Shown piece after piece: positions 12,493 to 55,966 of a DNA stretch of 64,000 nt. The stretch lies in NCBI RefSeq assembly GCF_056746865.1, contig NZ_JBWKMP010000003.1. One strand, given 5' to 3'. The stretch's first letter is position 1; every line of letters starts with the position of its first letter. A model generated the notes under the pieces. That model saw nothing but the letters and a program-made list of their open reading frames with translations, ran no database searches and was not told the DNA's origin. This DNA is from a plasmid. The position numbers were made by a program, and so were the translations under genes.

Positions 12493-12522
12493 TGTTAGGA
12501 AATTAAATTGATGTTTCTAATC
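12493..12522. promoter_or_regulatory. Operator-like inverted half-sites (TGTTAGGAAA ... TTTCTAATCA)
   Basis: Member of the dispersed TGTTAGAAA/TTTCTAACA motif family. Confidence 0.45.
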
Positions 12523-12575
12523 AAGAATGTATGATTTACATTGTCACTAAAAAACAGCATTTGATAAAAATTCTG

Positions 12576-12604
12576 TTGATCTTTCTAATGTTCAGGCTTA
12601 TATT
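12576..12604 (+). promoter_or_regulatory. Sigma70-like promoter with an operator motif in the spacer, driving the immI-like module 1
   Basis: TTGATC, 17-bp spacer containing tttctaatg, then TATATT. Confidence 0.45.
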
Positions 12605-12611
12605 CATGCCG

Positions 12612-12850
12612 TCGTAGCAAATTCTGCGACCAGGTTTGACAGCCTGAATACTTACGCGGACAACCGCACATTTCCGATATTGCGGTATTTTTGTGTCCGT
12701 AAAACCACGTTACGCCCGAATTATGGTGGGGCGTGATGGGGAGGCTTCGGCCTGCTGGTTTCGTAAGTGCCAGTCTGTCAACCCTGTCACGTCCTGCCAC
12801 CTGTTTGACAGCGGGTCGCAGGTTGTTTATCAACTTACGAGGCCGTAACT
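12612..12850 (+). ncRNA. Candidate c4-like antisense RNA / structured leader upstream of the icd-like gene
   Basis: About 240 nt without an ORF between promoter and icd-like start; tttgacag (12632, 12811) complementary to ctgtcaac (12773); P1 immI uses a C4 antisense RNA at the equivalent position. Confidence 0.35.
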
Positions 12851-13075
12851 ATGGTTAATGCCAATCATTGCTCACGTCCAGAATTCATCTGGCGTTTCCA
12901 CTCCCTGCAAAAACATTGTGATCACTTCGCAATTGCCGCAACTGAAAAAGAAGCCCGTTCTCTGATCCCTGATCAGTATGGCGTTCTCACTGGTCGTTTC
13001 TCTACTTCCCCACAACCAAACACTAATCCCTGGTATCGCAATATTACCAATCCCGGCATTGCGGAGGCTCACTGA
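12851..13075 (+). CDS. Icd-like small protein (immI-like module 1)
   Basis: 74 aa; paralogous to 54810-55025 (shared EFIWRF...AATE.EAR motif); stop overlaps the start of the antirepressor-like gene. Confidence 0.55.
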   Translation: MVNANHCSRPEFIWRFHSLQKHCDHFAIAATEKEARSLIPDQYGVLTGRFSTSPQPNTNPWYRNITNPGIAEAH

Positions 13076-13782
13076 TGGATATCTGCATTCTCGAAAAACT
13101 ATCAATGACCAGCATTGAGATTGCGGAGCTGGTGGGAAGTCAACACTCTGACGTTAAACGTAGTATTGAGCGTATGGTTGCTCGAAGCATTATCCGAAAA
13201 CCGCCAATGGCTGTTTTCGAAAAAATCAATAACTTAGGATTGCGTCGTGGCGTTGAGGCTTACGTCTTCGAAGGCGAGCAAGGCAAACGAGACAGCATTA
13301 TTGTCGTTGCGCAGCTCTCTCCCGAATTCACCGCCCGGCTGGTGGACCGCTGGCGCGAACTGGAAGAACAAGTACGCCAGCCGTTGACCGAAATAGAGAT
13401 GATCGCTGCAATGGCTGCGAATGCAGTTCAGCAGCAAAAGCGGCTTCATGCTGTTGAGTCAAAGGTTAGCCAGGTCGCTGAAACCGTCGAGCAGATCAAG
13501 AAAGGCAACATACCAGAAGGCTACATTGGCTACCGCCAACTGGCGGCGAAATGCGGCCTGACTGAAGCCAAATGCCGTAACCTGGTCAACGCTTACCGGA
13601 TCCCCACAGATACGCATGAGTTTTTGACGCCAGAGGGGGTATTGTCGCGTCGTACTATTGTGGCCTTATCTCCCTTCATGAATGCCTTTACCCTGATGAT
13701 GTCGGAGGCTGAACACCGAGGAAAACGCTGGTATCACCCAAGGATGGGGCAATTCCAGGTAATCGGTTGGGGAGGCGAGTGA
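13075..13782 (+). CDS. Antirepressor-like protein (Ant/Rha-KilA-type N-terminal domain), module 1, possibly truncated
   Basis: Paralogous to 55025-55966 over the N-terminal and middle regions (identical block EGEQGKRDSIIVVAQLSPEFTARLVDRWRELE); ORF ends early compared with the paralog. Confidence 0.6.
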   Translation: MDICILEKLSMTSIEIAELVGSQHSDVKRSIERMVARSIIRKPPMAVFEKINNLGLRRGVEAYVFEGEQGKRDSIIVVAQLSPEFTARLVDRWRELEEQVRQPLTEIEMIAAMAANAVQQQKRLHAVESKVSQVAETVEQIKKGNIPEGYIGYRQLAAKCGLTEAKCRNLVNAYRIPTDTHEFLTPEGVLSRRTIVALSPFMNAFTLMMSEAEHRGKRWYHPRMGQFQVIGWGGE

Positions 13783-13979
13783 TGGACATCATGCAGGCGG
13801 TAAAAAAAATCGGGGAAGGACAGGCTGAAGTGTGCCGCCGTAAAGCATGGAGTGTTGGTGTATGGGTCTGGCCTGATAATAGCTCTACTACTGGATGGTT
13901 TTGTATTAATGGATACCAGATCCGGGAAGTCGATTTATCGACGGCGGATGCAGTCGGTAATGATTGGATCGTAACTTGA
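13767..13979 (+). CDS. Separate-frame ORF matching the C-terminal DUF2829-like part of the antirepressor paralog (frameshifted ant or ant2-like)
   Basis: CRRKAWSVGVWVWPDN...ADAVGNDWIVT aligns with the C-terminus of 55025-55966; overlaps the 13075-13782 ORF by 16 nt in another frame. Confidence 0.4.
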   Translation: MGRRVMDIMQAVKKIGEGQAEVCRRKAWSVGVWVWPDNSSTTGWFCINGYQIREVDLSTADAVGNDWIVT

Positions 13980-13987
13980 AGTGTGAT

Positions 13988-14012
13988 GCCCCGGCTTGGC
14001 CGGGGCTTTTTT
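13988..14012. terminator. Bidirectional rho-independent terminator between ant-like (+) and the peptidase gene (-)
   Basis: gccccggc-ttg-gccggggc followed by tttttt. Confidence 0.6.
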
Positions 14013-31786: not shown

Positions 31787-32824
31787 TTACCAGAGTTTTG
31801 CCGCGTACATCGTTTGTGTGAATGTGTACCCATAGCGTTCTTCAACGCTTTTACCGTATTTTTTCCTGGCTTCAGTAAGGCGGATGCCTGTCAGGTCATC
31901 GCCGGAGGCAATCATAACTTCCAGTAGTTCCAGGTCCATTTTATCCAGCCTTGCCATTGCATCTTTAGCCTCTTGAATTTTCCGGCTAACGATCTGGTGT
32001 ATGGCTGGATCGGCTTCGGCCAGCATTTTATCTGATTTGTTTTTTAAACTCTGATTGCGGATATCAATGTTTCTCAGGATATATGACTTCACGACGTAGC
32101 TTGGCTGCTGCTTTTCCAGATCACGAACCCGATAAAGGTCAAATTCGCCGAGAAGTCCGCACGGAAGCGGTTTAATGCCAGTGTAAATGGTAAGGGTGCG
32201 GCGCTCACCAACGTTGTTAACAACGGGAATCTCTGTGTTTGCTTTTTTTGCAAAGATCAGCGCACCGTGCGTACCCACTCTGAAGCGTGAAAGTCCATTG
32301 TTGCCCTCAATATTGGTGGTAATCACCACATCGGTATAACCTTCTTTTCTTGCGCGGTATACCTCGCCCTCACGTTCAGCGGCGAAGAATCTGCGTTCTT
32401 CTTCAAGCGCACCGACAACCTGTGAAAATATCCTGTTTTTCATGCTTTTCTTTATAGTTTTATCGTATTTTTTCAGCAGGTCTTCGCGCGTAAATGTTCT
32501 CGTTGTGGTTGCGCTTTGCATAACGATGTGCGTACTCTGATTAGTATCCTCAACAATGAATGGGATCGGTAAATAAACCGACTCAACAATGTTTGAGGCT
32601 TTGTCATCATCCTTGCGACACAGATCAACAAAGGCTTTCCATTCGGCTATGCATTTTTCAGCTTCTTCTAATACAGCCGGATCATGTGTTAATGCAACAT
32701 GGCGAAATTCCTCGCCAACATAACTGGTATCATGGAAAACAGAGTTTGCGACCACCAGCTCTTTCCACCTTTCAGCGGTTTGCAGGAACCGTTTGTACTC
32801 ATTCTCGATCGACTTCTTACTCAT
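31787..32824 (-). CDS. Hypothetical 345-aa protein; candidate immunity repressor (P1 c1 position: convergent with pacB, next to lox/cre)
   Basis: Best start is the internal ATG (MSKKSIENEY) with RBS aggaa; an operator motif TGTTAGAAAA lies immediately upstream on the coding strand; no recognisable domain by eye. Confidence 0.45.
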   Translation of the reverse strand: MSKKSIENEYKRFLQTAERWKELVVANSVFHDTSYVGEEFRHVALTHDPAVLEEAEKCIAEWKAFVDLCRKDDDKASNIVESVYLPIPFIVEDTNQSTHIVMQSATTTRTFTREDLLKKYDKTIKKSMKNRIFSQVVGALEEERRFFAAEREGEVYRARKEGYTDVVITTNIEGNNGLSRFRVGTHGALIFAKKANTEIPVVNNVGERRTLTIYTGIKPLPCGLLGEFDLYRVRDLEKQQPSYVVKSYILRNIDIRNQSLKNKSDKMLAEADPAIHQIVSRKIQEAKDAMARLDKMDLELLEVMIASGDDLTGIRLTEARKKYGKSVEERYGYTFTQTMYAAKLW

Positions 32825-54496: not shown

Positions 54497-54602
54497 GAAA
54501 ACACACAGTTGCGCCCTGGCATTATCGTGGGGTATATTTCTACGGCACCTTAGAAAAACGGGTGCCGGGATTGGAACCCCGGATAATGTCAAAGGCGACA
54601 CA

Positions 54603-54624
54603 GACGCCGAACGCGTCTTTTTTT
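54603..54624 (+). terminator. Rho-independent terminator
   Basis: gacgc-cgaac-gcgtc followed by ttttttt. Confidence 0.6.
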
Positions 54625-54639
54625 GTGTCATGCCATCGC

Positions 54640-54809
54640 ACAGCCATACTTAGCGTTTAGCTCAGAGATCAATGGTAGTGCTGGCTGGGCTGCCGAAAGG
54701 CAGGCCGGTTCCCTTTGACGCCGGTAGTTCCAACCCAGTCAGTGCTACCGCCATTGAGATTGGAACCTCACGCGGTAGCTCCTTAACTTAGTCAAAGGAG
54801 GCTGCCAAT
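54640..54809 (+). ncRNA. Candidate c4-like antisense RNA / structured leader of the immI-like module 2
   Basis: ORF-free ~170 nt with long-range complementarity (tcaatggtagtgctg / cagtgctaccgccattga; gttccaa / ttggaac) directly upstream of the icd-like RBS. Confidence 0.35.
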
Positions 54810-55025
54810 ATGGCTACTATCCCTACCCCAACTCATTCTGAATTTATCTGGCGTTTCTATTCCTGCCAAAAACACCTTTATATCTGCGTAATGGCTGCTA
54901 CCGAAGCAGAGGCGCGCTCATACCTTCCCGAAGAACCCTGCATTTTTGCTGCTCGCTTCACTCTTGATGCGATGGAGATCCTCAATTACTGGAATCTGCC
55001 AATGAACTGCGTGGAGGTGCACTGA
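54810..55025 (+). CDS. Icd-like small protein (immI-like module 2)
   Basis: 71 aa; paralog of 12851-13075; stop overlaps the ant-like start. Confidence 0.55.
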   Translation: MATIPTPTHSEFIWRFYSCQKHLYICVMAATEAEARSYLPEEPCIFAARFTLDAMEILNYWNLPMNCVEVH

Positions 55026-55966
55026 TGAATCTGTCCATCTCTCAAAAAGCGACAATGACCAGCATTGAGATCGCGGAACTGGTAGGAAGTCGCCCAGATA
55101 GTGTGAAGAGAACTATCGAAACACTGGCTAAAAAGAGTGTGATTCAATTTCCACAATCTGTGGAAATTGAAAATAAACAATCAGTTGGCCCTCGTCGATT
55201 TTCCAAGGCTTACATCTTTGAAGGCGAACAAGGAAAACGAGACAGCATCATTGTCGTCGCGCAGCTCTCTCCGGAATTTACCGCCCGGCTGGTGGACCGC
55301 TGGCGCGAACTGGAGAATGCCCGGGTACAGTTAAAATCCAAAGCCGAAATCCTGGCCGAAATGGCGCAAATGCATCTTGAGCATGAACGCCGGATCAACG
55401 CCGTTAATGCCCAGGTAGCCGAAGTATCGGCACAAGTGTCCAGGGTCACCGAAACACTTGAGCAGATCAAGAAAGGCAATATTCCAGAAGGCTACATTGG
55501 CTATCGCCAGTTGGCGGCAAAATGCGGCCTGACTGAAGCCAAATGCCGCAACCTGGTCAACGCTTACCGGATACCCACTGATACGCATGAGTTTTTAACT
55601 CCCGACGGTTTGCTTGCGCGACGCTCCATTGTGGCCCTGGCCCCCTTCCGGAAAGCCTTTAAGCAGGTTATGTCGGAGGCAGAACCACGTAACAAACGCT
55701 GGTATCATCCCAGGATGGGGCTATTTCAGGCCATTCACCATCCTGTGCCTGAAAGTCCAAAGGCAAACCTGTCGTTGCATACCGCCAGAGAGAAGATTAA
55801 AACAGGGTATGCAACCGTATGCCGTCGAGCATCCTGGCCTGAAAGTGTCTGGGTATGGCCCGAAAGAGGCTCACGGAAAAACTGGCGCACCATTCGCGAC
55901 GGCAAGATCTGTGCGATTGATTTACAGCCAGAAGATGTAGCAGCGACCGACTGGATTGTTAGTTAA
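55025..55966 (+). CDS. Antirepressor-like protein (Ant/Rha-KilA-type N-terminal region plus C-terminal DUF2829-like domain), intact copy
   Basis: 313 aa; N-terminal and middle regions paralogous to 13075-13782; C-terminus CRRASWPESVWVWPERG ... DVAATDWIVS fits DUF2829. Confidence 0.65.
   Translation: MNLSISQKATMTSIEIAELVGSRPDSVKRTIETLAKKSVIQFPQSVEIENKQSVGPRRFSKAYIFEGEQGKRDSIIVVAQLSPEFTARLVDRWRELENARVQLKSKAEILAEMAQMHLEHERRINAVNAQVAEVSAQVSRVTETLEQIKKGNIPEGYIGYRQLAAKCGLTEAKCRNLVNAYRIPTDTHEFLTPDGLLARRSIVALAPFRKAFKQVMSEAEPRNKRWYHPRMGLFQAIHHPVPESPKANLSLHTAREKIKTGYATVCRRASWPESVWVWPERGSRKNWRTIRDGKICAIDLQPEDVAATDWIVS

Follow-up and report, generated by a model that had tools for sequence, protein, structure and literature searches.

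Two antirepressor modules with distinct predicted C4 antisense specificities in a D6-like phage-plasmid

We analysed a 64,000-nucleotide stretch of plasmid DNA (contig NZ_JBWKMP010000003.1 of NCBI RefSeq assembly GCF_056746865.1; hereafter the window), which is part of a D6-like phage-plasmid, and found in it two modules in which a leader and a C4 antisense RNA gene precede an icd-like gene and a translationally coupled antirepressor gene (ant). The C4 RNAs of the two modules have different recognition sequences and, judged from sequence, the window very probably carries two independent, orthogonal switches of the type encoded by the immI operon of phage P1.

Recognition sequences of the two C4 RNAs

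RNA families were identified with an Rfam scan at gathering thresholds and promoter-like sites with a consensus scan. Each module harbors a C4 gene between two pairs of target sites, a1 and b1 upstream and a2 and b2 downstream (Table 1). The predicted folds of both C4 RNAs are canonical (-42.8 kcal/mol for module 1 and -46.7 kcal/mol for module 2) and consist of a long outer stem, two hairpins, one with a tetraloop and the second with a loop of 11-12 nucleotides (nt), and a single-stranded linker. With the annotated P1 sites as a guide, recognition is predicted to be in two parts, through the loop (b') and the linker (a'), and the recognition sequences differ between the modules: a is TTGACAG and b is ACTTACG(A) in module 1, and a is TTGGAAC and b is GTCAAAGG in module 2. 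Each C4 finds exact complements of 7-8 nt at all four sites of its own module and at most 5 nt at the sites of the other. In keeping with this, on the downstream targets the cognate pairs have duplex energies of -20.7 and -21.5 kcal/mol, compared with -7.0 and -14.4 kcal/mol for the non-cognate pairs. Each 7-8-mer target occurs twice in its leader of about 300 nt and 3-8 times on the + strand of the whole window; the arrangement of the targets is far beyond chance. In the predicted folds, a1 of both modules and a2 of module 2 lie wholly or partly inside hairpin loops.

The modules also show several further features of a P1-type immI operon. In addition to the C4 fold and the two-part recognition, ACTTACGAGG and GTCAAAGGAGG sit 8-11 nt upstream of the icd ATG, which places b2 over the ribosome-binding site in both modules, and the stop codon of icd overlaps the start codon of ant in the sequence TGATG (13072-13077 and 55022-55027), so that the two genes are coupled. 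Both Icd proteins are homologs of those of P1 and P7, with which they align in 24 invariant columns, and a2 and b2 of module 1 are arranged like the annotated P1 sites. Between the modules, nucleotide identity is 62.4% in the leader, 62.4% in C4, 64.3% in the spacer from C4 to the icd ATG and 64.9% in icd, and the Icd proteins are 40% identical. Recent duplication and sequencing noise are ruled out by the 62-65% identity in leader, C4 and icd.

An earlier note on this DNA, made from its letters alone, had proposed two icd-ant modules, each with a leader, an Icd-like open reading frame (ORF) and an overlapping antirepressor gene, and had held that the Icd paralogs and leaders differ. Both modules are indeed present on the + strand, as judged by the Rfam matches, the reading frames and the TGATG overlaps, and the alignment confirms that they are no identical duplicates. 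The start that it gave for module 1, 12576, is accurate, being the -35 box of the homolog of the P1 promoter P51b; the annotated P1 promoter P1c4 stands at the same leader position and reads TTGACC..TATAGT. The start given for module 2, 54640, is about 130 nt too late and drops the likely promoter (54509-54538) as well as the a1/b1 leader and the terminator of that leader (54545-54625). In full, module 1 spans 12508-14006 and module 2 about 54509-55966.

Covariation of C4 RNAs with their targets

We compared a sample, rather than a full census, of 169 leaders anchored on Icd (160 IMG/VR loci plus reference phages). Each leader was parsed into the C4 loop, the linker and their best complements upstream and downstream. 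C4 was recognised in 166 of the 169 leaders, and 164 keep pairing of at least 7 nt at all four sites. The leaders fall into a P1 type, as in module 1, and an IsrK type, as in module 2. P1-type leaders use two a alleles (TTGACAG and TTAGCAG) and five b alleles (GTTAGTG, GATTGTG, ACTTACG, ACGAATG and ACTTGTG) in eight combinations. IsrK-type leaders use the a alleles TTGGAAC, TTGAGAC, TTGGCCT/TTGGTCT and TTGGCGT and the b alleles GTCAAAGG, GCAAAAGG, GTCTAAGG and ACTCAAG, and six a/b combinations were found.

Throughout the parsed leaders, from which the P1-type alleles were judged, a change in the C4 loop is always accompanied by a change in both targets. The covariation count and the shuffles were run on 34 IsrK-type leaders. 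Here the C4 stems together with the a'-a2 and b'-b2 helices (or, upstream, a1-a' and b1-b') are paired in 99.6-99.8% of cells, compared with 26-49% in slid controls, and 19 pairs show double changes, a count matched by none of 500 shuffles. The covariation of the C4 loops with both upstream and downstream targets is strong evidence that antisense pairing is under selection in both kinds of module. The folding and covariation across homologs, the distinct recognition sequences and the short cross-matches all point to the dual specificity that the earlier note had raised.

Among D6-like contigs with near-identical Icd we found five P1-type and three IsrK-type allele combinations. Since different alleles stand on near-identical backbones, the recognition alleles have been swapped or diversified against a conserved background. 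Two natural leaders have mismatched locks. L081 (IMGVR_UViG_2565956613_000015) has the ACGAATG allele in the C4 b' and in b1 but GTTAGTGAGG at b2, and L114 (IMGVR_UViG_2778261639_000014) has the TTGGAAC allele in a' and a2 but TTGAGAC at a1. Both may have arisen by recombination, and their ant may be derepressed or tuned differently.

Both leader types are present in at least 13 of the 32 sampled contigs of at least 75 kb, a lower bound that was counted among the best 80 matches per search. One P1-like contig of 97 kb (IMGVR_UViG_2703718869_000013; leaders L078, L079 and L129) has three C4-icd modules, two of the P1 type with the b alleles GTTAGTG and ACTTGTG and one of the IsrK type. Among PLSDB plasmids, 110 have a complete module 1 and 579 its leader, and 91 have a complete module 2 and 449 its leader. 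The leader-icd part of module 2 occurs in 424 of 5426 complete E. coli genomes and is nearly always plasmid-borne. Judged from the D6 record and this distribution, D6-like plasmids acquired the module pair long ago and it is fixed in them. Of the proposal that one module had been captured from another phage, the different ancestry of the two leaders stands and a recent capture does not.

The comparison also bears on the Rfam family isrK, which detects the leader of module 2 and lies outside the Rfam C4 clan CL00128. A single leader (L162:2246-2334, IMGVR_UViG_2773857937_000001) matches both isrK (76.3 bits) and c4-a1b1 (52.7 bits) above threshold. This double match indicates that the two families describe one kind of element; on the sequence comparison, what Rfam isrK detects is the a1/b1 leader of a C4 module.

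Proposed mechanism of two antisense locks

From the anatomy, complementarity, orthogonality and covariation demonstrated above we infer that C4 is processed and represses icd and ant, that the leader acts as a decoy and that an immunity phenotype follows. A promoter would give a precursor that runs from the leader (a1, b1) through C4 and the second pair of sites (a2, b2) into icd and ant, and a C4 of about 77-79 nt would be cut from it. Through its hairpin loop b' and its 3' linker a', C4 would pair with the a2 and b2 sites of mRNAs of this same kind. Since b2 overlaps the icd ribosome-binding site, icd would go untranslated when C4 is bound, and since the ant start lies inside the icd stop, ant would go untranslated too, which would keep the antirepressor off in the lysogen. 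The upstream copies a1 and b1 would serve as decoys for C4. In module 2 the decoy would be a free, IsrK-type RNA ended by its own terminator, which would titrate C4 and switch the operon on, as IsrK does for anrP in Gifsy-1. Because the two C4 RNAs recognise different sequences, each would silence its own operon only, giving two independent locks on the antirepressor. An incoming relative would then be silenced only if the resident C4 RNAs match both of its locks, so that the allele pair would set the immunity group. The modules are probably functional. Their Ant proteins, although of a different family, probably work like P1 Ant, and we infer that both act on the distant C1-like repressor of the element itself.

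Several observations weigh against this mechanism. The putative promoter of module 2 was not called by the consensus scan and is weak compared with the consensus; its TTGCGC box is also found in related IsrK-type leaders wherever the aligned stretch extends that far upstream. The terminator 5' of the module 2 C4 might hold C4 synthesis down. Module 1 has the a site of P1, and partial cross-talk with P1-type C4 RNAs is conceivable. At the protein level, Ant1 and Ant2 of the window share only 18-20% identity with Ant1 and Ant2 of P1 and are not homologs of them; both are of the Rha/Roi type (PHROG 63). The C1-like protein (32114-32806, - strand) is a distant relative of the P1-type C1 of RCS47 (21.6% identity, E 3e-7), and the P1-type C1 operator ATTGCTCTAATAAATTT has no match with up to three mismatches anywhere in the 64-kb window. 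With so low an identity, the operator of the C1-like protein may differ from the P1 consensus that was searched. Finally, the authors of the Gifsy-1 study attributed the action of IsrK to direct pairing with the mRNA rather than to titration of the C4-like RNA, and IsrK remained toxic when that RNA was co-expressed (PMC4825925).

Alternative roles of the antirepressors and C4 RNAs

The ant genes are mosaic. Their proteins are 65% identical overall, with a block of 50 residues (Ant1 141-190) that is 100% identical and flanks that have diverged, in particular the N-terminal 60 residues and residues 98-140. These differences would fit two antirepressors with different jobs, one acting on the C1-like repressor of the element and the other on repressors of co-resident prophages or on another regulator. 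Ant2 moreover consists of an N-terminal Rha domain (Pfam Phage_pRha, 3.5e-5), a core and an extra fused C-terminal domain (residues 249-313, nt 55769-55963), which module 1 encodes separately; module 2 belongs to the IsrK type, and the Gifsy-1 representative of this type triggers the expression of AntQ; and in RCS47 the same leader type precedes a P1-Ant1-like protein, suggesting that leader and cargo are interchangeable. We nevertheless regard a division of labor as unlikely. The identical block is compatible with a common target of both Ants, and such conservation of the core is what would be expected for a common partner. Further, both proteins belong to PHROG 63, and the Gifsy-1 AnrP is itself an antirepressor that induces its prophage.

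The 65-amino-acid (aa) protein of module 1 is 40% identical to residues 249-313 of Ant2 (E 1e-16), and by this alignment the same domain is fused to the antirepressor in module 2 and encoded as a separate gene in module 1. The 65-aa protein and the Ant2 C-terminus give weak but concordant signals for Tad2 (Thoeris anti-defence 2, PF11195), with Pfam E values of 0.08-0.11 for the 65-aa ORF. Within the 65-aa family, four of six members score E of 0.1 or below, the best at 8.6e-5. An AlphaFold2 model of the 65-aa protein has a pLDDT (predicted local distance difference test) of 76.7, and its top 17 Foldseek matches in the PDB are all Tad2, though weak (E 0.36-1.7, TM about 0.5). The idea of a Tad2-like domain stays weak because the homolog searches with the 65-aa protein gave only 3 and 10 matches. 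As a side possibility, the domain that is made together with each antirepressor may be a sponge for signals, like Tad2, that comes into play upon induction.

The C4-like RNAs, at least that of module 2, could also act mainly as transcription terminators in the manner of the CI RNA of satellite phage P4, through sites like seqA and seqC, rather than by blocking icd. Over 167 nt, the C4 region of module 2 and the CI region of P4 share 73% identity, the module 2 leader contains an intrinsic terminator, and the authors of the Gifsy-1 study likened IsrK to P4 seqA and STnc1160 to CI (PMC4825925). This reading appears improbable, since in both modules and in every allele class b2 covers part of the icd ribosome-binding site, which fits P1-like translational occlusion. 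The two mechanisms are moreover compatible, in that the translational block yields Rho-dependent polarity in P1. It is highly improbable that recombination has left one module redundant or decaying, with no present function: the module 2 promoter is weak by consensus, an identical ant is flagged incomplete by RefSeq in one plasmid, and L081 (b2) and L114 (a1) have mismatched locks, but every ORF is intact in the window, the four-site complementarity is retained and covaries across alleles, and full modules are found in 91-110 plasmids, with both retained by D6-like contigs.

Features of the modules and the element

The positions of all features are collected in Table 1. Between b1 and C4 of module 1, at the position of the IsrK terminator of module 2, the + strand has a hairpin followed by a U-run (12663-12698; ..CCGCA..TGCGGTATTTTTGTG). 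The scan skipped it because of its 12-nt loop, and it may be a weak homolog of that terminator. In a 100%-identical plasmid (NZ_LR890273), the module 2 C4 gene coincides exactly with a RefSeq/PGAP coding sequence (54672-54791 of the window, + strand) for an "ash family protein" of 39 aa. The call is probably spurious, an RNA gene having been taken for a protein gene, like "orf45" over STnc1160 in Gifsy-1 (PMC4825925). We also considered the shared motif TTTCTAAT near the module 1 promoters as an operator and rejected it; five copies were found where three were expected, so that it is not enriched, and it is homologous to the spacer of P1 P51b.

Both module regions are 91-92% identical to Escherichia phage D6 (NC_050154). 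The first 25 kb of the window matched about 95 E. coli/Salmonella plasmids (about 90 kb) over at least 80% of its length, the best at 97%. Landmarks of the window are a gene for a DarB-like protein of 2283 aa, repL and homologs of ref, pmgF and simB. Three tRNA genes lie on the + strand in the region 26040-26969 (26040-26111, 26117-26189 and 26897-26969).

Table 1 Coordinates of the two modules in the window
Feature	Position	Strand	Sequence and basis
Module 1
Promoter-like site, upstream (putative)	12508-12535	+	TTGATG-16-TATGAT; consensus scan; position matches P1 P2c4/P51a
Promoter-like site	12576-12604	+	TTGATC-17-TATATT; consensus scan; homolog of P1 P1c4 (P51b)
a1/b1 leader	12598-12650	+	Rfam c4-a1b1 RF03163, 55.2 bits (gathering 46.7)
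a1	12636-12642	+	TTGACAG; complementary to C4 a'
b1	12650-12656	+	ACTTACG; complementary to C4 b'; extends beyond Rfam span
C4 antisense RNA, 77 nt	12725-12801	+	Length by P1 C4 homology; Rfam RF01695 match 12719-12804, 69.6 bits (gathering 45)
C4 b' loop	12762-12768	+	CGUAAGU
C4 a' linker	12775-12781	+	CUGUCAA
a2	12805-12811	+	TTGACAG
b2	12833-12840	+	ACTTACGA; overlaps icd Shine-Dalgarno
icd Shine-Dalgarno	12839-12842	+	GAGG
icd-like gene, 74 aa	12851-13075	+	56% identity to P1 Icd; PHROG 1426, E 2e-38; D6 orf19
ant (Rha/Roi type), 235 aa	13075-13782	+	PHROG 63 "anti-repressor Ant", E 1e-45; D6 orf18
65-aa gene	13782-13979	+	Start overlaps ant stop (coupled); PHROG 7385, E 1e-45; D6 orf17
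Intrinsic terminator-like hairpin closing the operon	13988-14006	+	8 G-C pairs then TTTTTTAT
Module 2
Putative promoter	54509-54538	+	TTGCGC-18-TATATT; read from sequence; 6 nt 5' of the IsrK-like RNA start
IsrK-type leader	54545-54623	+	Rfam isrK RF01394, 61.3 bits (gathering 50)
a1	54571-54577	+	TTGGAAC; in hairpin loop
b1	54588-54595	+	GTCAAAGG
Intrinsic (IsrK) terminator between a1/b1 leader and C4	54602-54625	+	AGACGCCGAACGCGTCT then TTTTTTT; kept in 34 aligned leaders
C4 antisense RNA, ~79 nt	54674-54752	+	Rfam RF01695 match 54668-54755, 77.1 bits (gathering 45)
C4 b' loop	54712-54719	+	CCUUUGAC
C4 a' linker	54727-54733	+	GUUCCAA
a2	54760-54766	+	TTGGAAC
b2	54791-54798	+	GTCAAAGG; overlaps icd Shine-Dalgarno
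icd Shine-Dalgarno	54795-54801	+	AAGGAGG
icd-like gene, 71 aa	54810-55025	+	PHROG 1426, E 4e-41; D6 orf83, annotated Icd-like
ant, 313 aa	55025-55966	+	PHROG 63, E 3.5e-58; D6 orf82

Significance

Dual modules are already known from the D6 annotation, the literature (PMC6799933), about 100 plasmids that have both and P1-like elements such as RCS47, and are standard for this phage group; the value of the present analysis lies in confirming and refining, not in discovery. New here are the explicit orthogonality of the two specificities, a combinatorial catalogue of alleles with covariation and the recognition that the second leader is of the IsrK type.

As a tentative proposal, plausible though short of probable, D6/P1-family phage-plasmids may run a combinatorial code of two, and sometimes three, orthogonal C4-antirepressor locks. 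The locks would be built from separately exchangeable a and b alleles (at least 2x5 in the P1 type and at least 4x4 in the IsrK type), and recombination would yield dozens of heteroimmunity groups on near-identical backbones. The free IsrK-type decoy would titrate C4, which would recast the Gifsy-1 IsrK as an anti-antisense sponge and bring isrK into the C4 clan.

Phage-plasmids of the P1/D6 type, which carry resistance genes, are often found in E. coli and Salmonella, and their immunity governs coexistence, displacement and induction. If two matched antisense locks are needed, immunity groups would be readable from four short motifs, and the allele table would, if the proposal is true, predict compatibility for hundreds of sequenced plasmids. 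Two problems of annotation also emerged, the RefSeq protein over the module 2 C4 gene and the missing link between Rfam isrK and the C4 clan.

Comparison with known systems

The immI operon of P1 and P7 is reportedly organised as c4-icd-ant1/2 (Citron and Schuster 1990; Riedel et al. 1993). In P1, RNase P excises C4, and Rho-dependent polarity reinforces the translational block. For P1 the mechanism is established, as PMC8198154 and PMC12197685 summarise from Citron and Schuster (1990). The window modules share with P1 and P7 the order of promoter, a1/b1, C4, a2/b2 over the icd ribosome-binding site, icd and coupled ant; identity is 85-90% in the leader of module 1, which also contains the P1 a site TTGACAG, and the window Icds are 40-56% identical. 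In contrast, the b sequence of module 1 is ACTTACGA, whereas that of P1 is GTTAGTGA and that of P7 is GATTGTGA. The window further differs in its Rha/Roi-type Ants (18-20% identity), in the position of repL upstream rather than downstream, in having no P1-type C1 operator and in carrying two modules per genome.

D6 and D6-like plasmid prophages such as pYU39_89 have a 91% identical backbone, the same two loci and gene order and identical module 1 alleles, and the second antisense-icd region was already noted in a 2019 paper (PMC6799933). Module 2 differs from that of D6 at both sites, with TTGGAAC/GTCAAAGG in the window and TTGAGAC/GCAAAAGG in D6. In the D6 GenBank record both pairs are labelled "Icd-like protein" and "anti-repressor Ant" (orf19/orf18/orf17 and orf83/orf82), while neither C4 RNA nor the target sites are annotated.

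In the isrK-orf45/STnc1160-anrP locus of Gifsy-1, isrK is followed by the stable processed RNA STnc1160 and by anrP, whose translation rises more than 100-fold when short IsrK is provided in trans; AnrP is an antirepressor that induces the prophage and leads to AntQ expression (PMC4825925). Module 2, and module 2 only, has the makeup of an IsrK locus, with an isrK-like RNA, its own terminator and icd-ant downstream, reached by predicted read-through. The likeness extends to the intrinsic terminator in the leader, the C4-like RNA that follows and the translationally coupled antirepressor. The window differs in that an icd homolog lies between C4 and ant, where Gifsy-1 has a proposed 45-codon ORF overlapping the stable RNA, and in that no antQ adjoins module 2. 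In blastn searches the module 2 leader matched no Salmonella/Gifsy phage record, and the link to Gifsy-1 rests on the Rfam isrK covariance model. IsrK-type leaders 68-73% identical to that of module 2 precede ant/Rha genes in many Shiga toxin (Stx)-converting lambdoid phages. A 2025 review lists IsrK and C4 as unrelated entries.

With the CI RNA of P4 (seqA, seqB, seqC) the window modules share the C4/CI fold and the arrangement of a processed RNA that pairs with sites both upstream and downstream of itself. However, CI prematurely terminates transcription of replication genes, whereas the targets in the window cover the ribosome-binding site 5' of icd-ant.

The P1-like phage RCS47 has a second ant module between pacB and c1, alongside its canonical immI, with an IsrK-type leader and a C4 that are 91% identical to those of module 2. 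The record has no feature over this region (NC_042128 103406-105004, L004:3002-4600), which comprises the IsrK-type leader, C4 and an icd-like ORF with EFIWRF. The RCS47 module differs from module 2 in its P1 Ant1-like cargo, its genomic position and its a allele, TTGAGAC. Overall, these comparisons support different ancestries for the two leaders of the window, the module 1 leader being of the P1/P7 type and the module 2 leader of the IsrK/lambdoid/P4 type.

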